Source: a virus. From it: a DNA stretch of 64,000 nucleotides. Of the stretch, positions 1 through 36,797 are shown piece by piece. The notes beneath the pieces are model-generated. The model was not told the DNA's origin, made no database searches, and saw nothing but the letters and a program-made list of their open reading frames with translations. Positions within the stretch are counted from its first letter, which is position 1, and the number at the start of each line of letters is the position of its first letter. The translations under genes were made by a program, and so were the position numbers. The DNA is taken from positions 1-64,000 of the IMG/VR virus record IMGVR_UViG_3300005264_000002, one strand, 5' to 3'.

Positions 1-84
1 AAAGGTGACAATGAAAGGTGGCCCAAGTTGTGTCGATTTCTGCTCTAAATATGAGATGTCGAATTACCATAAAAGGAGGAATAA

Positions 85-366
85 GTGATTAAAGCAATTA
101 AAACCTATTTAAGGTATCGTAAGATTAGAAGATTATTTATTAAGTTTCTTAAGGACAATGATATCTATTATGCTTTCCAACTAGAACTAGATGCTGATCT
201 TGAATATTTTGATTTTAATAGTTATGTAAAAGAAAAAATATCATCAGGATTAGGATATGGCCTAATCTCATCAGCTTTTTCATGGGATCTTTCTCCTCAA
301 GGGCATACTTTTTGGGATAAGTTAAATGATAAATGGCAAGACATCATTATCGGAGTCAATAAATGA
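85..366 (+). CDS. hypothetical phage protein
   Basis: 93-aa ORF, AGGAGG RBS upstream, overlaps next ORF (ATGA coupling). Confidence 0.7.
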   Translation: MIKAIKTYLRYRKIRRLFIKFLKDNDIYYAFQLELDADLEYFDFNSYVKEKISSGLGYGLISSAFSWDLSPQGHTFWDKLNDKWQDIIIGVNK

Positions 367-596
367 GTTATCTAATAACCTTTATTTCAGGACTAATTAT
401 CAGTTTTATTATCTTTTCATATACTGGTAAGCCTGAATGTCCAAAGACTTATAATCTTCGATCTGATCATATGTTTACTGGAATGCCTAAGCACCACATA
501 CAACTAATAGATTATGGTAACAGGATTGAGGCAAGTTATTTTTGTAATAATGAAAGACAGTTCTATTTGATTGATTACAAGGATGAAGAGGAATGA
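363..596 (+). CDS. hypothetical protein with N-terminal TM/signal anchor
   Basis: hydrophobic N-terminus YLITFISGLIISFIIFSY; coupled to neighbours. Confidence 0.65.
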   Translation: MSYLITFISGLIISFIIFSYTGKPECPKTYNLRSDHMFTGMPKHHIQLIDYGNRIEASYFCNNERQFYLIDYKDEEE

Positions 597-13414: not shown

Positions 13415-16108
13415 ATGTTTAACAGATTCGTCAAAAAAAATAATGCAGATAAAATTCTTCCTTCTCCAGAATCTCAAGAATTAAAGAAAATGAGGATTGA
13501 AGTTGATGAGCTTCAAATCAAATTAGATGATGAGTATGAAGAGTCATTGGCCCTAGACAATTATTACACTAAGGATACATTATCTAGCTCACATGCTGGA
13601 AGTTCAGCTAATTATGATGTAGTTGATGAGGATATCGATTTAAGGACTCTCCAAGCTTTATATGCTTCTGAAGGATGGTTTTATATTGTTGTTCAGGCAA
13701 TTACTAAAGCTATAATCTCCCTCCCTATGAAAATGGAAAAGAAGAAAATCACCAGTGAAGAGGTTGAATTGCCTAATGGTGATACTGAAGAAGTTAAGAA
13801 TGAAATTTGGGTAGAAGCTAATGGAGAACCTGAATTTGATCTTTTTCAACATCCTAATGATATGCAGGGAGCATTAGAATTCTTTATGTTAGTTATCATT
13901 GATTTTCTTACTCTAGGAAATACCTATATATGGATTGATAGGGGAGAAGGTGGAATTGAAGTTGATAGACCAACGGCAAGACTCCAAGAGGCAATGAGAA
14001 GACATGGACATGGTATAAATGGAATCTATAGAATGAATGCGTCCCTTATAGAACCATTAATAGAAGATAAAGAGTTTGGAATATCTGCTTATGGCCTAAT
14101 GTCAGCAGAGGGATATATAAGATTTGAAGCTAGTGAAATGCTACATATTAAAATGCCTCATCCTGGTAATGCTTTTATTGGATTGTCCCCAATTGTTCCT
14201 GTTCTTAAGAATGTTTTAATAGATAGATTTACCAGTGAGCACATGATTAGATTCTATAAGCAAGGTGCTAGACTTGGTGGAGTAATTAAAACATCTAAGA
14301 AGTTAACTAAAAATCAAATAACCAGATTAACTAGAAATTTTGAATCTAAGTTTTCGGGTAAAAAAAATCACCATAAAACTCTTATCCTTCCTGAGGGTAT
14401 GGAGTATGAAATAATAGAGGCCAATCCAGGTGAAACATCCCTCATTGAATTTAGTAAATTTAATAAAGAACCTATTCTTAGCACTTATTCTGTGCCTCCT
14501 GTTCGAGTTGGTCTTTTAGATGGGGCAACTTATGCAAATGCACTGATTCAAGATAAGTCCTTTTGGGAAAATGCTGTTAAACCTGTAACTATGCTTTTAC
14601 AGGATGGCTTTAGTAATTCAGGCAAGATAATTAAAAGAGAGAGAAGATTAAGAATTCGTTGGGATCTTTCAGATGTTGAAGCTCTCCAAGAGAATCTAAA
14701 AGATAAAGTTGAAATAGGTAAAGGATTAGGCGAAAGTGGTTGGTCAATTGATGAAATTAGAGAAAAACATTGGAAGCTAACTAAATTAGGAGGAGATAGA
14801 GGAGGAAATCTTATCCCATTAGTTGAGAGGACTAAAAGGCCAGAAGGATTTAGGAATTTACAATTATCTGCTCCTGGGACTGAAGAAAAAACTCAGCCGG
14901 CCAATGCTCAACCAGATCAAGAAACGGTTAGTGATGTAACTCCTACAGATCAGACTTTTGAACAAAGAGTTGGAGAGTTAACATCAATTAATATTGCTTC
15001 TGGGCTTTCTCCTGCAATAGCTGCTCAAGAAGCTGTTACTAGAACATTAGCAGAAGGATTATTACCAGGAGTCTCTCCAGAAGTCTCTACTGTTGAAAAT
15101 AATGAAGATCCTCAAAATGATACATCAACTAATGAATCGGAAAATGATTCCGAAGCAGAAGAAAATGAGGATGGAGAAGATAAAACTGATGGAGAAGATG
15201 AACCAAATAAAATTCTTTCTCTTCCTGGTATGGATCAAGACACTCTCCAAAATACAGTTAAGGCCCTAACTGGTGAAGGTGTTGATGGATTAATTAAAGA
15301 TAAATTTGAAGAGACTAAAAGCACTTTTGGTAGAATGGAGAAAATCTTTCAAGAAGCTGCGAAATCTATTGTAACTGATAAGAGTGGAAGGATAAATAAG
15401 CGTAAACATCTAATAAAAAGCTTAAGAAATAAAGCTGATGGAGATGATGGACTCCCAACAGGGAAAGATATTGCTAAATTTGCTGAAAAAGAAGCTTCTG
15501 ATCATCCAAGTTCAGTTGACATTAAAGCAATGGAAGTCGGCCATTCAAATACAATAACAACTCATTCTTTGACTTTTCCTAATGAAGAGGCTTTAGAATC
15601 CATAGAATCAGAAGCAGCTAAGAAAATTGTAGGGATAACTGACACAACTAAAGATCAAATAAGAAGTGTTATTGCTGATGCTTTTAGTCAACAGGCCACT
15701 CCTCAACAATTGGCCGATATGATTTCAGATAAGTTTTCTCAGATAATGACTTATAAGGGTCGAGCAATGACAATTGCTAGGACTGAAACTCTTTCAGCAG
15801 TTAGTGAAGGTCAAGAGATAAAAAAGAACCAATTTCTTGAAGAACTTCCAGAATTATCAGATGAGTTAATGAAGGCCTGGATGAATGCAAATGATTCCGA
15901 TGTTAGGGATAGCCATATCAAAACAGGAGATGAGGGGCCGATTCCTCATGATGAAAAATTCTCTAATGGTCTTATGCATCCAAGAGAAAGAGGGGCCAAG
16001 GCCAAAGAAGTAGTTAATTGTCGATGTACAGTTATTTATTTCCATAAAGCAGAACAAGAAGAAATTGAGGAAACTTTAGCTGATGATTTAATTCCATCAA
16101 TAATTTAA
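13415..16108 (+). CDS. HK97-family portal protein fused to MuF/SPP1 gp7-like minor head protein
   Basis: portal motifs (HPN..., GNTY, GLSP, F..GA..GGVI, VPPV.VG); C-terminal RAMTIARTE...W....D..VR.SH...NCRC. Confidence 0.9.
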   Translation: MFNRFVKKNNADKILPSPESQELKKMRIEVDELQIKLDDEYEESLALDNYYTKDTLSSSHAGSSANYDVVDEDIDLRTLQALYASEGWFYIVVQAITKAIISLPMKMEKKKITSEEVELPNGDTEEVKNEIWVEANGEPEFDLFQHPNDMQGALEFFMLVIIDFLTLGNTYIWIDRGEGGIEVDRPTARLQEAMRRHGHGINGIYRMNASLIEPLIEDKEFGISAYGLMSAEGYIRFEASEMLHIKMPHPGNAFIGLSPIVPVLKNVLIDRFTSEHMIRFYKQGARLGGVIKTSKKLTKNQITRLTRNFESKFSGKKNHHKTLILPEGMEYEIIEANPGETSLIEFSKFNKEPILSTYSVPPVRVGLLDGATYANALIQDKSFWENAVKPVTMLLQDGFSNSGKIIKRERRLRIRWDLSDVEALQENLKDKVEIGKGLGESGWSIDEIREKHWKLTKLGGDRGGNLIPLVERTKRPEGFRNLQLSAPGTEEKTQPANAQPDQETVSDVTPTDQTFEQRVGELTSINIASGLSPAIAAQEAVTRTLAEGLLPGVSPEVSTVENNEDPQNDTSTNESENDSEAEENEDGEDKTDGEDEPNKILSLPGMDQDTLQNTVKALTGEGVDGLIKDKFEETKSTFGRMEKIFQEAAKSIVTDKSGRINKRKHLIKSLRNKADGDDGLPTGKDIAKFAEKEASDHPSSVDIKAMEVGHSNTITTHSLTFPNEEALESIESEAAKKIVGITDTTKDQIRSVIADAFSQQATPQQLADMISDKFSQIMTYKGRAMTIARTETLSAVSEGQEIKKNQFLEELPELSDELMKAWMNANDSDVRDSHIKTGDEGPIPHDEKFSNGLMHPRERGAKAKEVVNCRCTVIYFHKAEQEEIEETLADDLIPSII

Positions 16109-17689: not shown

Positions 17690-19105
17690 ATGAAACCTGA
17701 ATTAAAAAAAGCTATCCTTGAAGCTAGAAAAACTCTTAAAACAGCTAAAGCTAACGCTGCTTTCGCAACTAAAAAGCCAGGGCAAACTGGAACTAAAGGT
17801 TCAATGCCAGAAGTTGCCAAGAAATTTCTTGGAAAATTTTCTTGTAAATCTTTCCAAGAATTGATGAAAGTTGATACTTCATCTAAGAAGTTTTCTTATC
17901 TAGGTGATGAAGAAATAGAGAGAGTAAAAGGTCTTAAAGAAAGCGTAGATACTTGTGTTATCGCTGCTGAACTAATTAAATTTGTTGAGAGTGACGGTAA
18001 AGATCGTTCAGTAGCAAAGAGCGATGTTAAAAACTCAAAATATTATCAAGAAGAGCTACTTCCTCAGCTTAAAGCTTTTGGTATCGATTCAGGTGATGAT
18101 GGTTATGAGTGGATTCCTGAAATGGTATCAACTTCTTATATCGATGAATTTAATTTGGATAGAAAAGTTTCTGGACTTTTCCAAGAAATCCGTATGCCAT
18201 CAAATCCTTATCGTTTTCCTGTTTTAACTCAAGGTGCAATTGCTCGTAGAGTTGGAACTGTTACAGCTTTAAGTCCTTCACAAGCTTTCAAAACTGATAA
18301 GACAATCCTTTTTGAAGCTGTGAAATTGACTAATCAATATGAGCTACCAGAAGAGTTGAATGAAGATTCTGCTCCTGATATCGTAAAAGTAATCAGACAA
18401 GAGCTTATTGAAGGTCAAGAAAAAGCAATTGAAATTGCAATCCTTGAAGGGGATACTTCTGATCCTCATCAACATTCTTTTTCTCAATTGGCTGATCTTC
18501 CTGCTGGTACAGCTCTTGGAGCACTTCCAAATCAAGATGATTCTCCAGAGCGTGTTTTCGATGGTCTAAGAGTTAGAGCTTTGGCCGCTGGTGCTACTGC
18601 AATTGTTGACGCTGGTGCAAACACTCTTTCAGAAACAGAAATGAGTGAAGCAAGAGCTAAAATGGGCAAATTTGGAGTAGATCCTTCTCAACTTGTTTGG
18701 CTTTTTGGTCCAAAAGGATACAATCAAGCTCTACAACTTGATGATGTAAGAACTCTTGAGCAGTATGGGCCAAAAGCTCCTGTTCTTACTGGAGAGCTTG
18801 CAAAATATGAAGGTGCTCCAGTAGTTGTTTCTGAGTATCTAAGAGAAGACACAGACGCAACAGGTGTTAATGGTGCAGTTCCTGCTAACAACATTAAATT
18901 ATCTGTTATCTGCGTAAATAGAAAGAGATTCTTTGTTGGATTGAGAAGAGGACTTCAAGTTAAAGTTGAGAATAACAGAACTCAATATGATGTACTTGAC
19001 ATGGTATCTTTCCAAAGAAAAGCTTTCCAAGCTGTTCTTAAGGCCGATGGATCAAATTATGCTGCAGAAAGTTCAGTATCTTTGATCTACAATATCGGAG
19101 CTTAA
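17690..19105 (+). CDS. major capsid protein (HK97 fold) with N-terminal delta-like region
   Basis: G.EWIPE, ELNEDS, AILEGD, FDGL, G.PVVVSE motifs; position; strong codon bias; followed by terminator. Confidence 0.92.
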   Translation: MKPELKKAILEARKTLKTAKANAAFATKKPGQTGTKGSMPEVAKKFLGKFSCKSFQELMKVDTSSKKFSYLGDEEIERVKGLKESVDTCVIAAELIKFVESDGKDRSVAKSDVKNSKYYQEELLPQLKAFGIDSGDDGYEWIPEMVSTSYIDEFNLDRKVSGLFQEIRMPSNPYRFPVLTQGAIARRVGTVTALSPSQAFKTDKTILFEAVKLTNQYELPEELNEDSAPDIVKVIRQELIEGQEKAIEIAILEGDTSDPHQHSFSQLADLPAGTALGALPNQDDSPERVFDGLRVRALAAGATAIVDAGANTLSETEMSEARAKMGKFGVDPSQLVWLFGPKGYNQALQLDDVRTLEQYGPKAPVLTGELAKYEGAPVVVSEYLREDTDATGVNGAVPANNIKLSVICVNRKRFFVGLRRGLQVKVENNRTQYDVLDMVSFQRKAFQAVLKADGSNYAAESSVSLIYNIGA

Positions 19106-22912: not shown

Positions 22913-23626
22913 TTGATAATGAAAGTATTAAATTTTATCATAAATATTTTAAGTAAAACTATTGGAGAATGGCATTTTCCTTGGGTTGATAAAAAATTTA
23001 ACCTTAAAGATTATTTTCTGATTGAGGGCCAAATTAGAAAATTATCTTCTCCTTTTGTTGTAGGAGTAGTTAAGACTAATGGTCATGGATCAAATTTGTT
23101 AATTAGATTCGCTCAATTATTTTCTAAAGATGCAAGAAAAAGAAAAGGTGAAATTACTCATGCATTAGCTCATATTGGAATCTATGATGGGTATAAGCAT
23201 AGAGTTGTTGAATCTTTAGGTGATGGGATAAGAGAACATTCTCTATTGGAATCTATTGGTCAAAGAGATACTGTAATTTTAAGGCGGCCAAATCCAAAAT
23301 TTTTAAATCCAACATTATGCAATCATGCCATTGATTATATTAAAGAGGTGGCCAAAAGAGATGCTTTCAATAATATCGAGTATGATAATGATCATGACTA
23401 TAAAACTATCCCAATAGAAGATATTATGGATTACACTAATACTAAGAATCTAAAATTAGATTGTAGCGAGACAGTAATGCAAGCTCTTGAGCATGGTTTT
23501 AGAATGACTGGCCAAGTTAGTATAATCAAAATGGTTAAGAGAGGAGGAAAGCTTACCTGGATACCAGCAGATATACTTTTTTCTGATCTTTTTATTACTA
23601 TGTATGATTCAAGAAAGGAAAAGTAA
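22913..23626 (+). CDS. permuted papain-like (NlpC/P60, YiiX/YaeF-type) amidase
   Basis: His before Cys: THALAHIG...VVES...YD...DCSE.V...IPADI. Confidence 0.7.
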   Translation: MIMKVLNFIINILSKTIGEWHFPWVDKKFNLKDYFLIEGQIRKLSSPFVVGVVKTNGHGSNLLIRFAQLFSKDARKRKGEITHALAHIGIYDGYKHRVVESLGDGIREHSLLESIGQRDTVILRRPNPKFLNPTLCNHAIDYIKEVAKRDAFNNIEYDNDHDYKTIPIEDIMDYTNTKNLKLDCSETVMQALEHGFRMTGQVSIIKMVKRGGKLTWIPADILFSDLFITMYDSRKEK

Positions 23627-24780
23627 TGGCAGAATATCAAACACTCCTTAAACCTAATGCTTGGATAGATCCTCTTTCGTTAGCGGATCATTTAGATATT
23701 AAGCATATAAAAATTGACGTAATAGCAAATAAAGCTGAGGTTAATATCCAGGATATTTTATGGCAAGCAATTCTTGGGGGAATTGAGGGAAATGATTATT
23801 CTGTTGAATATACAATTGGAGCTGTTGCAGGATCGGAGGTTGTTTCAACCGTTGCTAATAAGATAGTTATTCAAATTGAAGATGGAGTTTCTTTAAATAG
23901 TCAGATAAAAATAGCATTTGATGCTTTTGTTGTCGCTAATCCTTTAAGTATCGCTTCAAATATTTCTGCTAGTATCGTATCAGACCTCTCTCCTAATGGG
24001 GTTGTTGCTACGCCTTTAATTGGAGGAACTAATCCGGATTCAGAACATGCATCAACTCTTAGAAAATTAGAAAGATTTATTAATAGAGCTTGTTCCAGAA
24101 TTGAGCAATATATTGATACATCAGCAATGGCCAAATGTTTCCAGGAAGATCTAGACGCAAATAATTCTAATGTTATTGTCCCTACTCATTGGCCAGTTAA
24201 AAGAATTCATGAAATTAAAATAGATTTTAATCGTCAATTTTCATCTTTTACAAAGCTTCTTCCAGAAAATTATTTCTTAAGAGGAACTCCCGATAGAAAT
24301 AGAAATGACCAGGAAGGAGAAATTTCTGAAGTAGATATGTGTACTCAAATCCTTAATGGAAGTGTTGATATAAATTTAATCGGGAATGATATTGTTCTTA
24401 GAGATGATAATGAAAGATTTATTGTTGGAAGGATATTTGCAGGATCTTCTTTAGGTTCGATTAGAGTAACTTATGACGCTGGTTGGATTGTTGGAAAAGA
24501 ATCATCTATTGATGAGGATACTGGAACAACTGTTTTTAATTTTTCTTTTATCCCTGATGATTTGGAATATGCAGCAACTCTTCTTTGTGAATGGTGGTAT
24601 TTCCAAAGAGATAGGAAAGATCTTGGGATTACTTCCAAAGGTGTTAGGGGAGAAAATTATTCCAAAATCGAAACTGGAATGCCAAGTGAAATCCAAGATA
24701 TCTTAGAAGCTTATAGAGATTTTTCTTTTGGTCAACACAATACACCTCAAAGAAATATAATGCTGGATATTGATTCATGA
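23626..24780 (+). CDS. head-tail adaptor (gp6/gp15-like) with inserted module
   Basis: L..FI.RA...IE.YI, RVTYDAGW, IPDDL..A..L motifs; insertion at ~23731-24027. Confidence 0.75.
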   Translation: MAEYQTLLKPNAWIDPLSLADHLDIKHIKIDVIANKAEVNIQDILWQAILGGIEGNDYSVEYTIGAVAGSEVVSTVANKIVIQIEDGVSLNSQIKIAFDAFVVANPLSIASNISASIVSDLSPNGVVATPLIGGTNPDSEHASTLRKLERFINRACSRIEQYIDTSAMAKCFQEDLDANNSNVIVPTHWPVKRIHEIKIDFNRQFSSFTKLLPENYFLRGTPDRNRNDQEGEISEVDMCTQILNGSVDINLIGNDIVLRDDNERFIVGRIFAGSSLGSIRVTYDAGWIVGKESSIDEDTGTTVFNFSFIPDDLEYAATLLCEWWYFQRDRKDLGITSKGVRGENYSKIETGMPSEIQDILEAYRDFSFGQHNTPQRNIMLDIDS

Positions 24781-25846: not shown

Positions 25847-26458
25847 ATGTCACATTATAGATCAAATTCACACATACAAAATCGACTACTTAAAATTGAA
25901 GATATTTTTCCTGTAAGAGTCTCTGAAGTTCTTGCCTCATTAATTGAGCAAGATTTAACTTTTACAGCAAAAGCTGGAACTGGAGAGCAAGGTAATTTAA
26001 TAAATATCATTTATGTAGCTGGAGCCGTAGCTGGAGCTGAAGTTGTTACTGTTGTTGGGAATAATATCGAAGTTCAAATAGAAGATGGTGTTTCTGATGC
26101 AACTCAAATTAAAGCTGCTCTTGATGGAGAGCCTCTTGCACTTGCTACAATCACAACTTCAATAAGTGGAGTTGGAGCAAATCCTCAGTCTGTTTTTACT
26201 CCTGCTAAGTTTCTTGCTGGTGGAGTTACAGAAATACCTGGTAAGCAAAGATCTTTTGTTTTTCGGCACTTAGCAACTGATGTAAGAGTTGATGGAAGAG
26301 AAATGACCAGTGTTGATTTTCAAGCAAATGGTGGTTTAGATATTACTTTTGATGCTGGTGGATCATCTTTTACTGTCGTTAAAGCAGATATAACAATTAT
26401 TAATCGTTTAAGAACTAAGAGATATCTCGTAGATGCCTCTGCAGTTACAATAGTTTAA
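25847..26458 (+). CDS. virion protein carrying one copy of the shared ~100-aa module
   Basis: LIEQDLTF.AK...GN.I.I.Y..G..AG.EVVTV...IEDGVS...LAGG. Confidence 0.75.
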   Translation: MSHYRSNSHIQNRLLKIEDIFPVRVSEVLASLIEQDLTFTAKAGTGEQGNLINIIYVAGAVAGAEVVTVVGNNIEVQIEDGVSDATQIKAALDGEPLALATITTSISGVGANPQSVFTPAKFLAGGVTEIPGKQRSFVFRHLATDVRVDGREMTSVDFQANGGLDITFDAGGSSFTVVKADITIINRLRTKRYLVDASAVTIV

Positions 26459-26794: not shown

Positions 26795-28372
26795 ATGAGA
26801 AATCTTAATTCACGTTCATTTGAAGTTTTAGGAGTTGACCAAAAAATTTGGTTGTCTCAAGAAACTGGAGGATATGGAGAGGCTGCGACAGGGGGCCTAA
26901 TCCCTGATGAGACAGGAGCAATCGAACACATAACTGCTGATGTCAAATTTGATATTCCTAGAGAGGATTCTGCAGCAAGATCAGGTAGATCTTTAGTTAC
27001 TCGATTGAGTGGAAAGATCAATGTAGAATTTTCTTTTGAAAGCTATATTATTCCTGGTACTCCTGATGCACTTGGGAATCCAACTTTTCCTCCTACTCAT
27101 GCTTTTATTCTTTCAGCTTTTGGAGATGTTGATACGTCTAATCCTGCTGAAATCGTTTATAAGCTTTCTAGGTTAAATGATAAATCTTTCAGACTTATTG
27201 AAGAAGCAACTCATTACGCTAGGCTTACTACTGGTTGCGTAATTGATACGGTGACTTTTTCTCTCCCTGGAGATGGGAAAGCTCAATTTAAGGCTGATGG
27301 ATTTGCTCAGAATTCTTTTATAGCTGGTGAAGGTAATTTGTCTCAAGCTATAACTGGTGTTGAGCAATTGGCCCAATTAATAGAGCAAGATTTAACTTTT
27401 GATGCCAAGCCAGGTTCAGGAATTAATGGAAATCTTATCAATATTATTTATATTGCTGGTGGTGTTGCTGGATCTGAGGTTGTTACTGTTGTTGATAATG
27501 ATATTGAAGTGCAAATTGATGATGGTGTTTCCAGTGCTCTTGAAGTTAAAACTGCTTTAGATGGGAATATTGATGCAGCAGCCTTAATTACCACAACTAT
27601 AAGTGGTGTCCCTGGTGGTTCACAGTCAATATTTACTCCTGCTAAATATCTAGTAGGTGGGCTTGGAACTAATGATATCAAAGTTGGAGATGGTGAAGGC
27701 AACAGATATGAAGTTGGAGCTTTAATTGATATTATCCAAGGTGTTGATGGCAACACAATCATAGAATCTCAAAGAGAAATCACTGTTGTTTATGATATCA
27801 CGAGTCCTAATGCTGATATCATAACAGTTGGTGGAGCTGCTCTTGCTGCTTCTGTAATTGGAGATTTTGTTATTGGCCATGCTCCAGAAAATTATGATCC
27901 AATAACTTCTGAAAATGCTCTTTTAGGTTTAAAGGGATCTTTTTCAGTAGCAGGATATCAACTTTCTGAATGTGAAATGATTACTGCTGAAATAGCAATA
28001 GCAAATAATTATACTAAGAAAGATTTCATTTATGGAACTAATAAAATTTGTGGATATATCCCTGATAAAAGACGTTCTGTAACTTTGAAAGTAGATGTTC
28101 TTTTGAATAAAAATAACTTCTCTTTCTATATGAGAAATAAGAAGTTTGTTGCTGAGAATGTGACTTTGACTCTTGAGCCAAATGATATTCCTGCTCCATC
28201 TTTCGCAAGTTCTGTGGGAAGGACTTTTGAATTTAATCTTCCAAAAGTAGAGTTTAATATTCCGTCTATTGAGAATCCTGGTGATTCTTATGTGACTCTA
28301 AGCCTTGAAGGTGTAGCTTTGGCAACATCTACAAATAGCTTAGATGATGAAATGACTCTTACCATTAAGTAA
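26795..28372 (+). CDS. major tail (tube) protein with internal insertion domains
   Basis: QETGGYG N-terminus, TGCVIDTVTFS, FNLPKVEF; followed by terminator and chaperones. Confidence 0.8.
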   Translation: MRNLNSRSFEVLGVDQKIWLSQETGGYGEAATGGLIPDETGAIEHITADVKFDIPREDSAARSGRSLVTRLSGKINVEFSFESYIIPGTPDALGNPTFPPTHAFILSAFGDVDTSNPAEIVYKLSRLNDKSFRLIEEATHYARLTTGCVIDTVTFSLPGDGKAQFKADGFAQNSFIAGEGNLSQAITGVEQLAQLIEQDLTFDAKPGSGINGNLINIIYIAGGVAGSEVVTVVDNDIEVQIDDGVSSALEVKTALDGNIDAAALITTTISGVPGGSQSIFTPAKYLVGGLGTNDIKVGDGEGNRYEVGALIDIIQGVDGNTIIESQREITVVYDITSPNADIITVGGAALAASVIGDFVIGHAPENYDPITSENALLGLKGSFSVAGYQLSECEMITAEIAIANNYTKKDFIYGTNKICGYIPDKRRSVTLKVDVLLNKNNFSFYMRNKKFVAENVTLTLEPNDIPAPSFASSVGRTFEFNLPKVEFNIPSIENPGDSYVTLSLEGVALATSTNSLDDEMTLTIK

Positions 28373-28489: not shown

Positions 28490-28957
28490 ATGTCTTTGAA
28501 ACGCTTAAACCCTAATTCTATTTTTAAAATTTGTTCTACTCAAGATCCTGCTATTGATAAAGAGGCAACAGGAGAAGAGAATTTAACGAAATATTCTGAA
28601 ACTCACGATATAGCTTTGCTTAAATTCGTTGAAGGGAAACTTCCTACAATTTTTCATGTAAAAAATATTTCTCCAGAAGATGAAGCTGAAATCCAAGAGG
28701 ATCATTATGTTATCCAAATGCCAGATCTCGACAAATTAGAAGGCGAAAAACTTAAAAAAGCAAAACCATCAGTAAAACAGGTTAAACAACAACAAATGTT
28801 TATGAAATATTTTAAAGCTGGAGTTAAGCATATTGAAGATGATGGGAAGATTGAACCAACATTCACTCCAGGAGAATGGCCATTGTCAATTCAACAAGAG
28901 ATCGGTGGATATATTATGATCAAATCTGCTTTAGGAGCAGAAGAAAAAAAGTCTTAA
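28490..28957 (+). CDS. tail assembly chaperone (G-like)
   Basis: lies between tail tube and tape measure; ends EEKKS at slippery site. Confidence 0.8.
   Translation: MSLKRLNPNSIFKICSTQDPAIDKEATGEENLTKYSETHDIALLKFVEGKLPTIFHVKNISPEDEAEIQEDHYVIQMPDLDKLEGEKLKKAKPSVKQVKQQQMFMKYFKAGVKHIEDDGKIEPTFTPGEWPLSIQQEIGGYIMIKSALGAEEKKS
28945..28951 (+). other. programmed -1 frameshift site A AAA AAG
   Basis: XXXYYYZ heptamer just before the G stop; the -1 frame is open to 29334. Confidence 0.85.
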
Positions 28958-29334
28958 CTGTCATGATGGGGCTGGCATTAGATCAAAATCAAAATGTCAA
29001 ATTAGATTGCTCCAATTGTGACTTGGGACTTCAAAATTTAAGGAATTGCGGTGGGAGGTTTAGAGAGAAGTCTAGATCTCCTATTAGAGTAAATGAAGAA
29101 ATTTATTGGATATGTCCAAGATCTTTGATTTTTAATAGGAAGGTAGAAAGTCAACTCTTCAATCTCTATATGACTTGTAAGGACAATAATGTTTTTCCTT
29201 ATGGAGCAGAGCCGCTTAAACAAACGTCCTTTTGTTTAGATGTGTTTAAGTTTTTAGATGGAATTTTAAGTGAATATCACGCCAGAAAAGACAAAGAACA
29301 CAAAGCTAAAATGGAGAAGGCCAATAAGATTTAA
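28945..29334 (+). CDS. tail chaperone frameshift extension (GT-like)
   Basis: -1 frame ORF (track 28876..29334), CSNC...C...CP motif. Confidence 0.75.
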   Translation, partial: KKVLTVMMGLALDQNQNVKLDCSNCDLGLQNLRNCGGRFREKSRSPIRVNEEIYWICPRSLIFNRKVESQLFNLYMTCKDNNVFPYGAEPLKQTSFCLDVFKFLDGILSEYHARKDKEHKAKMEKANKI

Positions 29335-32300: not shown

Positions 32301-33492
32301 TGCGATTCTTGAAGCAAATAATGTTGAGTTAGAAGCTTTTAGAAGCGGTCTTCAAGCACAAAGTGACTTAGCAATCAATATGGAGACTCAAAAGGCCTTA
32401 GAATTGGCAAATATTAGAGCTGGAGCTTTAGCTGGAACTCCTGCAGGAGCAGGGGCCAGTGAAGATGTTGAGACATTACAAGCTAAAGTAAAACAGGAGC
32501 AATTGGCCCAATTAAGGGAAAATGATCGAATCTCTGAGCAAGAACATCAGCAAGCATTAACTCAGATTAAAATAAGTCAAATGCAGGCAAGAACTGAAAG
32601 AGAAATTGAGCTGCAAAACAAAAGATCTGAAGCACTAGGATTAACTGAAGCAGGGTTAGAATCTCGTTTAGCTCAAAATGACATAGTTTTCCAGATGGAA
32701 ATGGAGCAAATGAGACTCCAGAAAGAAACTATATTTGAAAATGAAGTCCAATTTCAAGAATCAATGAAAGAAATGGAAATTCAGAATCAAATAAGCAAAT
32801 CTGAAACTAGACAGAGATTTATTCAAGAAGAGATTGATCAAAATATTAAGAAAAAAGATAGTTTCGCTGTTTCTTTAGCTCAAATTCGATTAGCTCAGGC
32901 CAAACATGGCCAAGTAATGGGAACATTATTAGGAGTTCAGCAAACAGCAGAATTTAAAGGAGTTCAAGGAGCACTTAGCAATCTAGCTACTTTAAGAAAT
33001 TCTAAAGGGAGAAAAGAATTTGAAATTGGAAGAGCTGCTGCTTTGGCAGGAGCCGGTGTAAATATCGCCCAGGGAATAATTGCTTCATTAGCTCCTCCTC
33101 CAATTGGTGCTGGGCCATTAATGGGGCCAATTTTAGCTGGAACAATTGCCGCTGCTGGTGCTGTTCAGATGGCCCAGATTAGTGCTCAAAAATATCCTGG
33201 TGGACAGGCCGATCAAGGTATGGATTCAATTCCAAAATCATTAAATGGTAAATCTTTTATCTTATCTGCAGGAGAAAGAGTTGTTCAGCCTGAAGCAAAT
33301 AAGAAATTAACTTCTTTCTTAGATCAACAAGAGAAATCTGGTGGAGGAGGGAATATTTTCCATATTCATATTGGATCTGTTGATAGTGATGATAGAGTTG
33401 AGCAAGTTGCTCAAAGAGTTAAGAGTATCATTAGAGAAGACTCTGAGAGAGGTGAACCAATTATAAGTGCTAGGGGAGTCGTTAATGAGTAA
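29347..33492 (+). CDS. tape measure protein
   Basis: 1381 aa, Ala-rich helical, TM-like segments, GERVV motif near C-terminus; follows chaperones. Confidence 0.92.
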   Translation: MAIEREISVNVVGTDENTSKTIQKVSQAIANQLVKATAAANAQFKQMETNTDKTNQVLQQNHKAAQKVSEQNQMIAESLEEIKGKEGIIATITSSMEGLVKTGLGIAGAFAGVVAIDKTFIPLNAIMGSLTNTMIGAQNRAAAMSTMFRQTASKTSILTQKFNQLKSNGIDVMIKGLNVGKTALTNTRAVLQNFTFSAKASGVILAGTSKAFLSASKHTELFEKGLAGTVVRASLAGAAFNMLGINLLRSDSILGKMAGVTLIALAASLAGAVFVVKQLLAAVGGLIQSIGDNLTAATEKQIELFAKAEKNTFAFTQTVTSYAESAEDAAAQTNMWNSFIADTSAATGETTDSLQALVAETVAATEAAHLNEIQMKELINRTIDLSERAHKPAMDTLVALINGMNGAGQSVISLGLHMSESAIQHSKLNAEVKKNFKNLSDSEKAQARFAVLMEQAGKAAGFASNNADLYSKSVKLQENAQKELNAELGRGAAIINGQYRFGLATVTRMMTNFIKPILPAIGFLEALGGRFLQVTGFITKNILIVGFAISTWKAFNILLAKGVAGGVFAQQLPFLNKSILQIVASLGATNANLGSLKGVAQTTFQILKSQSLNAVKSMLGLEATAKLTAKTFSTQLVKGLKAAGKGVLQFGKRLLVLLANPIVIKFALISAAIFLVVKALQKIEERTGIFSKVWEKFSAQFAGSSEMFQPVLDILKKIGDILTTVIGAAVKFVAAALSVFIGNILRTVKGLMLLSNVLSFMLPDAMVASAESLESINKQIDVLNKTAKDFAKEGAADLLGIFVSSAEAADGAIPMVKDWTKELASAAAGVGKMEEKAKKAFEAVKDFTPKINMAQFQKETAQFDTALKGLKKKLEAQKIVLIKAGANEEEIKTVETRISQTTEAIKGLQLRSAKEIRSARLKIVETELTSRKNKIFTVEQEIKQMRLDFANETRSQAIEIETQRILEQRNLATDAAKEGISVRQAAILEANNVELEAFRSGLQAQSDLAINMETQKALELANIRAGALAGTPAGAGASEDVETLQAKVKQEQLAQLRENDRISEQEHQQALTQIKISQMQARTEREIELQNKRSEALGLTEAGLESRLAQNDIVFQMEMEQMRLQKETIFENEVQFQESMKEMEIQNQISKSETRQRFIQEEIDQNIKKKDSFAVSLAQIRLAQAKHGQVMGTLLGVQQTAEFKGVQGALSNLATLRNSKGRKEFEIGRAAALAGAGVNIAQGIIASLAPPPIGAGPLMGPILAGTIAAAGAVQMAQISAQKYPGGQADQGMDSIPKSLNGKSFILSAGERVVQPEANKKLTSFLDQQEKSGGGGNIFHIHIGSVDSDDRVEQVAQRVKSIIREDSERGEPIISARGVVNE

Positions 33493-34297
33493 TACGCAAG
33501 GAATAAGCTTTTTATATGAATTTGATTTGGGAAACAAGCATGTTGATGATCCTGCTCAAAATATTTTATCAGTAACCTCTACGGCTCCAGGTGATTTTGA
33601 TCCTGCGAACATGACAAGTGAAGCAACAAGAGAAAGATGGCGATCTTCAGGGGTATTGGTAACTCAAGAAATTGTATGGAAAGCAGAACAAGCATCTAAT
33701 ATTGATACCTTTGCTATCTTAGGACATAATTTTTCTGAGGATGCTGTTATCCAATTACAAGCGAATATTTCTAATAATTTTGCTGCTCCTCCAGTTACAA
33801 TAAATATCCCTTGGAGAAAAGAAAATATTGTTTGGTTAAATGAGCTTGGTGGAGAATATGAATATTATAAGATCTCTATTCTTGATCCAACAAATCCATG
33901 TGGATATATTGAAATTGGAAGAGTTATTGGAGGAAGAGCATTTACCATAACTAATAATGAAGATATTAAAGATGCATTTAATATTGGCAAAAAAGATATG
34001 GCCGATCAAATGAAGACAGAGGGATTTTTTAGACAGTCAAATCAAAGGATAAAGGTTAGAACTTTATCAGCTTCATTTGCAAAATTAGAAACCAAATTAG
34101 GACTATCTAACGAAAATTTCTTAGGACTCAGGGAAATGTTCGATTATGTTGGTGAGACTGTTCCGTTACTAACAATCCTTGATCGAAATAATCCTGATCT
34201 TTTTACTGCTTGGGGACAATTCGATTCGATCCCTTCAGAATCGTTTACAACTAACGAATTTATGACATCTTCTTTTAAATTTAGTGAAGTTTTCTAA
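33485..34297 (+). CDS. distal tail / tail-tip protein
   Basis: follows TMP; ILGHNF and YIEIGRV motifs. Confidence 0.7.
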   Translation: MSNTQGISFLYEFDLGNKHVDDPAQNILSVTSTAPGDFDPANMTSEATRERWRSSGVLVTQEIVWKAEQASNIDTFAILGHNFSEDAVIQLQANISNNFAAPPVTINIPWRKENIVWLNELGGEYEYYKISILDPTNPCGYIEIGRVIGGRAFTITNNEDIKDAFNIGKKDMADQMKTEGFFRQSNQRIKVRTLSASFAKLETKLGLSNENFLGLREMFDYVGETVPLLTILDRNNPDLFTAWGQFDSIPSESFTTNEFMTSSFKFSEVF

Positions 34298-34358: not shown

Positions 34359-36797
34359 ATGTCACAGAACATATTCAAAAATCCATTTGTATCATCTCCT
34401 CCAACTTTAACAGGAGCATCAGTTGGAAATGGGACATTAACGATAGATCGTTTGACTCATTTCACAATAAACCAAGATTATACTGCTGTTTGTACAGCGA
34501 TAACTCCTTTTACTGTTTTTAAAATTATTGGAAGTTTAGATGGATCTGTTGGAGTTGCTGTTGTTGGGACTCAATTCTATGATCAAGATCTTAAGGTTTT
34601 CTTAACTATTAATCAAGGTCCAACTACTTTTCAAATTGGTGATACTTTTGAATTTACTCTTGATCAAGGGACAGATCTAAATAGAGAAAATATTGATTTA
34701 TATGATGAATTACCTCAAAAGAATTTTGGGGTAGGTGTTCCAGGCTCAATATCTGGTGATTATAATATCAGATTAAATACTACTGGAATTGATGCTTTTA
34801 GAATTATCCAAGACTTAAAATTCACTTCTAAAATCTCAGGTGCAGAAGGGAATGAAATTTCTATAGAATATCTTGCTGGATCTGTTTTGAGTCCTGCATC
34901 ATTAATTATCCAAGATTTAACTTATACTGCTTCACCAGGTGAAGCTGGGAATGGAATATCAATTCTATATACTCAATTCACTCCTGGAGTTGCGGCCACT
35001 AGAGATGTTCAAGATATTAATTGGACAGCAGATAATATTGGGGTAAATGGAAATTATATTTCAATGGTTTATATTGGTGGAGGAACTGCTGGTTCTGAAA
35101 TTGTTAATGTAACAGGGACAGGAACAGGCGGCGATCCATATATAATCACAGTCACTATTGAGGATGGAGTTTCTTCCGCTGATCAAATTAGATTGGCCGT
35201 TGGACTTCATGGAGTGGCTGGACCGCTAGTTGATGGGATTGCTCTTGGGACAGGATTAGAGCCTCAAAGTATTCAAGCTCAGATCTTTCTTTTAGGTGGA
35301 TTAGATCCAATTGGTGACGCTGGAAATGAAGTTGTCAATGTAGTTGCTCTTCAGATTGAAGTTATTTTAGAAAGTGGAGTTTCAACTGCTCAAAATGTTT
35401 ATGATGCTGTTTTTGCCTCTCCTGCTGCTTTAGCATTAGTTACCCCTACAATTTCAGGGACTCCAGCTACAACTCAAACTGCCCCTGTTGCTGAGGCAAA
35501 TTTAACAGGTGGAGCAGATGATGTTGGATTACCAGGATCAGAAGTTGTCAATGTATCTGACAAGGCCATTGAGGTCACTTTTAATGATGGATTATCTACT
35601 GCTGATCAAATTAAAACAGCAATTGAAGGAGATATTGATGCTAATGCCCTGGTTACAGTAACTATTGAAGGTGTTGGGGCCAATTTCCAAGACTCTCCTG
35701 TTGTTAGAACATTTCTTAGATCGGGACAATTGGCCGGGACTTTTGCTTTTAACTCTGAAGAGTTAACCGTTCCTGGTTCTTTTTTTGAAGGTAATGCCAA
35801 TATTTTAGCAAACAATCTTAACCTTCAAAATGAATTAAATGTTGAAGGAGAGTCCGAATTTAGAGGAAAAGTTAAATTCGATGATGCTATTCCAGCAAAT
35901 AATTCAGGTCCATTAATCGAAAATAATCAAAAAACAATTAATAATCTTATCCAAAATGGAAAAGTTTTTCTTCATACAGTAAATGATGAAAAAATGGAGT
36001 GGTCAGATCCTGCTGGGACATTAACGCTTTTAGATGACATTAATATTGTATTTTGTGAAACTAATATTGTTAATACAATTCTAGCTACTGATGGGCCATT
36101 TGTTATTGCTGATGGTGAGCATTTATATGTGACAGTTGATAGAGAGAATAATGTTAATCTTACGACTACAATAGCTTCTACTGTTCCAAATAGTCCTAAT
36201 GGAGAAAATATTTTTAGATTAGTTTCTAGGGTAGGTGATTCATTAGTCTGGTTTGATAATACTCTTCAAACTGAAGGCAAGAATATTAGAATAGGTGAAG
36301 GTGGAGCTGGTGGAGTTGGCTATCAAGAAAAGTTAGGAAATGGCGATGGAGCAGTTACAGCTTTTGGCCCTTTAACTTTTATTCCATCTTCTGAAAAATC
36401 CATTCTTGTTTTTTCAAATGTTATTAATTTTGTAACAACTGATTGGACATATAATGTAGTCCAAAATCAAATTGACTTTATAACACCACCTCCTTTGGGA
36501 GCAGAAATTTATGTCTTTTATTTAACAGAAGGTGAAACTTTATCAGTTCCTACTCCAAGTGGAGTAGAACGTGTTGAATATAGAGATATAACTTTAGCTG
36601 AAGAAACTGCCAAACAATTGACATTAGCAAATCTTCCTGCTGAACCAACTAAAGTTAAATTAGATATTATTGGTGGATCAGCTCAAAGATATACGGTTGA
36701 TTTTATTGTTACAGGAAGCATTTTGTCATGGAGTGGTTTAAGACTTGATGGAGTCTTAGTTGAAAATAGTGAAGTAAGGATAAATTATTATTCTTAA
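34359..36797 (+). CDS. multidomain tail/appendage protein with three nested copies of the shared module
   Basis: GNGTL..., TI.QG...F..GD.F.F domain; triple QDL/GN/EVV/GVS/GG pattern; C-terminal GDG...F adaptor domains. Confidence 0.8.
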   Translation: MSQNIFKNPFVSSPPTLTGASVGNGTLTIDRLTHFTINQDYTAVCTAITPFTVFKIIGSLDGSVGVAVVGTQFYDQDLKVFLTINQGPTTFQIGDTFEFTLDQGTDLNRENIDLYDELPQKNFGVGVPGSISGDYNIRLNTTGIDAFRIIQDLKFTSKISGAEGNEISIEYLAGSVLSPASLIIQDLTYTASPGEAGNGISILYTQFTPGVAATRDVQDINWTADNIGVNGNYISMVYIGGGTAGSEIVNVTGTGTGGDPYIITVTIEDGVSSADQIRLAVGLHGVAGPLVDGIALGTGLEPQSIQAQIFLLGGLDPIGDAGNEVVNVVALQIEVILESGVSTAQNVYDAVFASPAALALVTPTISGTPATTQTAPVAEANLTGGADDVGLPGSEVVNVSDKAIEVTFNDGLSTADQIKTAIEGDIDANALVTVTIEGVGANFQDSPVVRTFLRSGQLAGTFAFNSEELTVPGSFFEGNANILANNLNLQNELNVEGESEFRGKVKFDDAIPANNSGPLIENNQKTINNLIQNGKVFLHTVNDEKMEWSDPAGTLTLLDDINIVFCETNIVNTILATDGPFVIADGEHLYVTVDRENNVNLTTTIASTVPNSPNGENIFRLVSRVGDSLVWFDNTLQTEGKNIRIGEGGAGGVGYQEKLGNGDGAVTAFGPLTFIPSSEKSILVFSNVINFVTTDWTYNVVQNQIDFITPPPLGAEIYVFYLTEGETLSVPTPSGVERVEYRDITLAEETAKQLTLANLPAEPTKVKLDIIGGSAQRYTVDFIVTGSILSWSGLRLDGVLVENSEVRINYYS

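Follow-up and report, generated by a model that had tools for sequence, protein, structure and literature searches.

In flagellin, FliC, FlgK and FlgL, the domains follow the hairpin order D0-D1-D2-D3-D2-D1-D0, with the outer domains nested in the inner ones. The domains of the phage T4 sheath protein gp18 are likewise said to be arranged in a 'Russian doll' order. For multi-domain sheath proteins, nested additional domains have been described that are each made of an outgoing and a returning chain segment (PMC9230969). A solved case in which one motif is repeated in a non-tandem, fold-back manner is Si3 of the cyanobacterial RNA polymerase beta' subunit, with eight sandwich-barrel hybrid motifs (SBHM), of which SBHM-2 to SBHM-5 are built from distant parts of the chain, forming an elongated, 150-A body that is inserted into a host loop (PMC10895346). 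The present analysis concerns a comparable arrangement in the IMG/VR virus record IMGVR_UViG_3300005264_000002. The window that was analysed is the first 64,000 nucleotides (nt) of this 76,086-nt record, which is estimated to be 91% complete, and the element in question lies in the open reading frame (ORF) 34359-36797, encoding a distal-tail protein of 812 amino acids (aa). According to predicted models, aa ~143-458 of this protein probably consist of three copies of a ~100-residue beta-sandwich-plus-helix module, arranged as a homotypic nest N1[N2[N3-C1]C2]C3. This predicted architecture has good support: the modelled structure, its likeness to solved structures, the covariation of alignment columns and the architectures of related proteins all agree with it.

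As seen in Table 1, three N-halves of ~30 aa are followed by three C-halves of ~65-70 aa. Pairwise local alignment scores of the halves were compared with those of 500 shuffles. All N-N pairs (z 6.1-12.2) and all C-C pairs (z 7.2-16.9) were similar, with none of the 500 shuffles scoring as high, and all nine N-C pairs were at chance (z -1.4 to 0.5). The linear order is N-N-N-C-C-C and not a simple head-to-tail tandem repeat of complete units, a form that occurs only in other relatives. The module halves and their order had been described in an initial annotation of this DNA, whose coordinates were right within a few bases. The similarity between copies at the DNA level is low (60-84% over 19-40 nt), which indicates that the copies are old. 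Homologues of the 812-aa protein numbered 91, most of them full length, and the ORF is therefore a real gene. The protein had no sequence match in Pfam, PHROGs or PDB and none by tblastn in 50,697 GenBank phage records; PDB sequence searches with the nest, a 4-module profile and a full-family profile gave nothing useful.

The pairing of the halves was read from structure alignments of AlphaFold2 monomer models to solved sheath domains. For the full-length protein (64 homologues), the mean predicted local distance difference test score (pLDDT) was 88.7, with values above 90 across aa 140-460. The fragment aa 140-462 (69 sequences) reached a pLDDT of 96.6 and a predicted template modelling score (pTM) of 0.82, so that the relative placement of the parts is confidently predicted. 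The predicted secondary structure is strand-strand-short helix-strand for the N-half and strand-strand-helix-strand-strand for the C-half. Residues 98-203 of the phiCD508 sheath (9g8s_e) superpose on the range 143..457 of the full model, with 94 residues aligned, a root-mean-square deviation (rmsd) of 2.7 and Z 8.4. Because this range matches one contiguous sheath domain of ~100 residues, aa 143 and 457 would lie together in one compact, discontinuous domain. Another sheath, 9ezm_A, spans the whole fragment model (1..323; 93 residues aligned, Z 6.3). The inner copy (~aa 209-317) superposes on Lin1278 (3lml_C 95-186), DSY3957 (3hxl 93-180), the phage 812 sheath and 9gb1_1, with 87-96 residues and Z 7.1-7.9, and 90 residues of the model range 210..317 align to a single contiguous sheath domain; N3 and C1 would therefore form another such domain. 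In the models, a discontinuous outer domain thus surrounds a contiguous inner one. Only the innermost copy would be contiguous, the middle and outer copies each being made of an outgoing N-piece and a returning C-piece, and each level would be joined to the next by linkers of 2-6 residues on the outgoing and returning sides alike.

The models support the module fold as that of the outer (domain II type) beta-sandwich domain of contractile-tail sheath proteins. They superpose on solved sheath outer domains over the whole domain, with 87-100 residues aligned, Z 7.1-8.4 and rmsd 2.7-3.3. When 48,161 representative chains were scanned without bias and independently of Foldseek, only three reached Z>=5, all of them tail sheaths, and the best non-sheath chain had Z 2.6; the resemblance to sheath outer domains suspected in the initial annotation is borne out. 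A second look at the Foldseek list found sheaths in all 12 of its entries, and structure matches in the ESM Atlas were also sheath proteins. Sheath outer domains (9g8s/9gb1, 3lml, 3hxl, phage 812, T4 gp18) share the fold with the module and are themselves insertions with adjacent termini. The corresponding domains of the phage 812 and H. borinquense sheaths likewise have something inserted in them (ranges 94..313 and 86..293, ~95 residues aligned). In contrast to the sheaths, the host of the nest is a non-sheath protein from a phage record without PF04984 or PF17482 and with a siphovirus-type tube, and the nested units are sequence-recognisable copies of one module, with a depth of up to 8 in relatives. 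A fold search of BFVD gave no viral model over the whole triple nest (best TMq 0.30). The top Foldseek matches of the full model, FlgL and CBA120 TSP4, were rejected as likenesses of the nest, as they concern the N- and C-terminal domains. As a separate observation, the equivalent domain of the phage 812 sheath (9euf_T / 8q1i_O, residues 92-317) spans 220 residues with ~96 aligned, and one alignment matches 159 of its residues to two nest modules (rmsd 33.7 A). These modelled matches hint that this sheath may itself hold a two-level nest of similar folds.

The distribution of the module was followed in 213 related proteins, each scanned with one hidden Markov model (HMM) for the N-half and one for the C-half; 91 of these proteins were the homologues and 122 came from a profile search (964 clusters at E<=1e-3 among 1.84 billion representatives). 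Contiguous N-C modules made up 162 blocks, and tandem NCNC arrays were present in 60 proteins. Balanced N^kC^k blocks numbered 107, most with k=3 (79) or k=2 (24), and one each with k=4, 5, 6 and 8; P0077 has 7+8 units by HMM and 8+8 by eye. The other 39 blocks were unbalanced, mostly 1+2, a short divergent N-half having likely been missed by the HMM. The copy-number variants for which the initial annotation had suggested a search are therefore present as 1-, 2- and 4+-copy forms. Among orthologues of the 812-aa protein (P0001), depth-2 proteins (P0069, P0072, P0075) and a depth-1 protein (P0074) fall inside a well-supported depth-3 clade, in at least two places. Relatives of the 203-aa protein of this phage share its C-terminal motif; nesting depth is 1 in those of ~200 aa, 2 in those of 307-313 aa and 3 in the 407-aa form. 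Depth thus shifts by whole modules in at least two host-protein families. Among the relatives, the module was found in head-completion, connector and BppU-like contexts and not in sheaths. In five orthologues of 930-960 aa (P0037, P0006, P0010, P0011 and P0019), an extra ~125-aa segment of another kind lies within the last C-half, before the final strand.

A second class of nest has another loop of the module cut, and was found in P0080 (depth 6), P0116 (depth 8), P0210 (depth 5) and P0180 (depth 3). Here the split falls ~20 positions into the C-half. The outgoing units of 56 aa consist of the N-half plus C-half HMM positions 5-21, the returning units of ~45 aa match positions 20-64, and positions 1-64 are matched by the innermost copy alone. 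The returning units of P0001 and P0077 each cover the C-half essentially in full. The same module is thus divided into 56+46 residues in the second class, as against 33+68 in the first. Two complementary cuts of one domain are a prediction of domain-in-domain insertion, and independent tandem repeats would not give them. By eye, P0076 (816 aa) has a mixed nest, in which the outer level uses the first split site and two further levels use the second. P0076 also contains a ~75-aa unit with the conserved motif HG(F/L)V...TG(T/S)(L/V)P...DY(W/Y)V, which stands three times behind C-type units (two of these places lie within the nest, the third behind its final C-unit), and this unit also follows the nest in P0080. 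Taken as a whole, the module may be a self-nesting building block of 'balanced bracket' N^kC^k arrays, with depths from 1 to at least 8 and two split points, in many unrelated phage virion proteins, a generalisation that we hold to be nearly as probable as its contrary.

The initial annotation proposed that each copy was inserted into a loop of the previous one. This is one of two possible routes to the same order. Whole copies may have been inserted at the centre, or the N-array and the C-array may have grown or shrunk separately by unequal recombination, with selection restoring equal numbers. Separate growth bears only on the origin of the nest, and we consider it a serious possibility, somewhat under an even chance. 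Several results lean towards it. N units stand in tandem to each other, as do C units, and the order N1 N3 C1 C2 C3 of P0037 resembles an unbalanced intermediate, though such an intermediate should be partly misfolded. The depth-2 orthologues show two separate gaps, one of 34 aa for the absent N and one of 72 aa for the absent C-equivalent, the C gap lying mid-unit as for a hybrid repeat; the placement of gaps inside repeats by MAFFT is, however, arbitrary. Position-specific HMMs, applied to find which level the depth-2 and depth-1 orthologues have lost, mostly gave tied scores, as hybrids would. Within P0080, similarity is greatest among the four outer N' units and likewise among the four outer C' units, while central insertion predicts that the newest copies are innermost. 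One result of the same protein leans to central insertion: its fifth N' unit and its first returning C' unit are both divergent and match each other, as expected of halves inherited together. Single copies are also clearly mobile as whole insertions in other proteins. A mirror test, comparing the similarity matrices of N units and C units under all permutations, gave r 0.87 for the nested order in P0080 (rank 15 of 120), with the signal coming from this one divergent pair.

Covariation was measured as mutual information with average product correction (APC) in the 64-sequence alignment, and it bears on whether the halves might pair sequentially (N1-C1, N2-C2, N3-C3) or be swapped between the subunits of an oligomer, in which case the monomer model would mislead. 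Most tail and baseplate proteins assemble as trimers or hexamers, the models here are monomers, and the N1-C1 and N3-C3 blocks are above zero. Even so, the N1-C3, N2-C2 and N3-C1 blocks were strongest in every row, and 54 of the top 100 inter-segment covarying pairs fell in nested blocks against 28 for sequential pairing. The strongest column pair, aa 205-336, joins N2 with C2. Adjacency does not explain the coupling of N1 with C3, since no two segments lie farther apart along the chain. Furthermore, N3 is tied to C1 by the 2-residue junction between them and by the superposition of aa 210-317 on a contiguous sheath domain, the alignment over 143..457 places N1 and C3 in one compact domain, and the pTM of the fragment is high. 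Sequential or swapped pairing is thus improbable. Neither it nor independent tandem domains, the outcomes against which the initial annotation had set nested pairing, was seen: the inner copy and the span 143-457 each fit one sheath domain (about 90-96 residues aligned), and covariation is nested. Two independent tandem arrays, with the three N-units forming small beta units or a sheet of their own before three separate alpha/beta C-domains and no N-C pairing, are permitted by the linear order alone, by the absence of sequence similarity between N and C units, by ordinary unequal crossing-over as a way for each to grow, and by the two N and three C units of P0037, but are disfavoured to the point of being very improbable, because the 162 blocks and three further proteins of this phage carry N and C together as one contiguous ~100-aa module, their counts are equal in 107 blocks up to 8+8, the second class cuts the same module elsewhere, and a single sheath domain fits both N3+C1 and the span from N1 to C3.

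Several points weigh against the preferred reading of a self-nested module with the sheath outer-domain fold. AlphaFold2 exploits the same coevolution signal, so that the model and the covariation are only partly independent, and Z values of 7-8 are middling scores. The pairing of N2 with C2 at the middle level is suggested by elimination, high pLDDT and covariation only. P0037 is truly without N2, having two N-halves and three C-halves. In P0077 and P0116 the mirror test gave no signal, and in these deep nests the N and C matrices do not mirror each other, which is also what separate growth of the arrays would give. No Pfam family covers the module, and the profile of the sheath domain itself (PF17481, Phage_sheath_domII) matched neither the 812-aa protein at E<=0.1 nor the four modules of the window at E<=10. 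Its gathering score of 31.4 bits was reached by no relative, P0028 having 25.7 bits and P0080 17 bits. Weak matches occurred in 15 of 63 relatives (best E 2e-4), with the whole profile covered in P0092, and these count in favour of the reading. By sequence, the module is at best a distant relative of this family. Finally, its function is argued from analogy.

If the nest is built as modelled, its three beads would form a stiff, double-stranded out-and-back arm with the innermost copy at the tip, since the linkers are of only 2-6 residues on both sides. Both chain ends would stand at the base of the arm, so that the flanks aa 1-140 and 460-812 stay together, and the length of the arm would depend on how many levels are nested (1 to 8 among the relatives). 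Such an arm of depth-dependent length is inferred. The telescoping stalk imagined in the initial annotation has no support in model or sequence, and sliding layers were rejected, as the model is a fixed stack (pTM 0.82). The module also sits singly in the tube, adaptor-like and 203-aa proteins, which makes a surface role the most plausible one. By analogy, it is possible, though in our estimate rather less than an even prospect, that the module serves as a surface decoration or as a weak adhesion-spacer or stabilising domain. A role of this kind has been proposed for the additional domains of sheaths (PMC9230969) and for Ig-like phage decorations.

Compared with the known systems, Si3 shares with the nest a homotypic out-and-back insertion that keeps the host chain ends together. 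It differs in its sandwich-barrel hybrid fold, its host (the RNA polymerase trigger loop) and its unrelated function. Its order is also mixed, with motifs 1, 6, 7 and 8 continuous and no clean N^kC^k, and no family of variable depth is described there (PMC10895346). Flagellin and the hook-associated proteins share the out-and-back chain, and FlgK, FlgL and flagellin were among the ESM Atlas structure neighbours of aa 185-389. However, their nested domains are not of a single fold, flagellar proteins match the nest only weakly (template modelling score 0.32-0.37), and the strong FlgK/FlgL match concerns aa 10-102 and not the nest. Tandem immunoglobulin (Ig)-like, FN3 and BIG2 arrays of phages resemble the module as small beta-rich units spread over several virion proteins of one phage, and head-to-tail arrays also occur in the 60 relatives mentioned above. 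They differ in fold, and nested copies put both array ends at the base. Nothing specific on self-nested domains in phage proteins was found in the literature. What is new is that the module nests in itself within a protein that is not a sheath, in a phage that has none, and that relatives form a clean series of variable depth up to 8 with two split points. The principle itself has precedents in sheath proteins and Si3, and the finding is an extension of a known kind.

If the reading is true, these proteins would represent a distinct class of repeat architecture, a rigid arm of tunable length with both chain ends at its base. Its growth would need matched changes in two repeat arrays, a form of protein elongation not yet described family-wide. 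Nesting would let a projection of adjustable length grow in the middle of a chain while the flanking domains are kept together, which a tandem array cannot do. As it spans depths of 1 to 8, is split at either of two points and includes tandem as well as nested arrays, the family would offer a natural series for the study of domain-insertion origin, the folding of discontinuous domains, and the keeping of two repeat arrays in step. Domain callers miss or fragment such modules, and with a dedicated profile many virion proteins of uncultured phages that are now labelled 'hypothetical' would gain an annotation. Protein design might also make use of the out-and-back rod as a scaffold.

Outside the nest, three single copies of the module were found in this phage (Table 1), and those of the 203-aa and tube proteins are the most alike. 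The module behaves as an insertable surface module with adjacent termini, and adjacent termini make self-insertion possible.

Table 1. Module halves, single module copies and structural genes, in positions of the 64,000-nt window
Feature	Position (nt)	Position (aa)	Strand	Remarks
N-half 1	34794-34883	146-175	+	outgoing part of the putative outermost module
N-half 2	34896-34985	180-209	+	outgoing part of the putative middle module
N-half 3	34995-35084	213-242	+	first part of the innermost, contiguous module
C-half 1	35091-35306	245-316	+	second part of the innermost module
C-half 2	35322-35519	322-387	+	returning part of the putative middle module
C-half 3	35535-35732	393-458	+	returning part of the putative outermost module
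Single module copy, adaptor-like ORF	23734-24027		+	more divergent; HMM N 4.6e-5, C 2.8e-7
Single module copy, 203-aa ORF	25925-26236		+	contiguous; HMM N 3.3e-9, C 1.6e-18
Single module copy, tail tube protein	27362-27670		+	HMM matches to both halves
Portal	13415-16108			structural module
Major head protein	17690-19105			structural module
Head-tail adaptor-like ORF	23626-24780		+	phrog_442 adaptor match
203-aa ORF	25847-26455		+	virion-module protein
Tail tube protein, 525 aa	26795-28372		+	family PF18906
Tape measure, 1381 aa	29347-33492			
276-aa protein gene	33467-34297			after the tape measure
Host gene of the nest, 812-aa distal-tail protein	34359-36797		+	after the tape measure and the 276-aa gene

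Other parts of the 812-aa protein also have structural likenesses. Residues 10-102 (nt 34386-34664) superpose on a domain found in FlgK/FlgL, proteins of the flagellar hook junction (Z 8.2-8.9, 81-88 residues aligned), and are more weakly like a Wzc periplasmic domain. Residues 650-724 resemble the T7 gp17 N-terminal/neck-fibre anchor fold, and compared with 8gtc_G of the roseophage R4C baseplate-tail complex they show 26% identity over 73 residues and Z 8.9. Residues 649-812 (nt 36303-36797) loosely match residues 181-332 of CBA120 TSP4 (rmsd 11-12). The likenesses modelled for aa 649-812 suggest a role of the C-terminal part in fibre docking or branching. The label 'tail-tip protein' given in the initial annotation fits the gene position and depends on it, and a gp27-like hub fold is not among the structure matches listed for the full model.

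The window has a G+C content of ~33%. Searched at E<=1, the 76,086-nt record gave no hit to the sheath core families PF04984 and PF17482, and neither the 812-aa protein nor the record carries the core of a contractile-tail sheath protein. The claim that this phage has no sheath gene is thus upheld for a record that is 91% complete. Together with the siphovirus-type tube, the phage looks like one with a long non-contractile tail. A sequence search of PDB with the 276-aa neighbour of the nest protein gave nothing useful. Fibre-like genes come after ORF 34359-36797. Between the tube gene and the tape measure lie two overlapping ORFs of ~150 aa (28490-28957 and 28876-29334), in the usual position of the tail assembly chaperone pair with its programmed frameshift.

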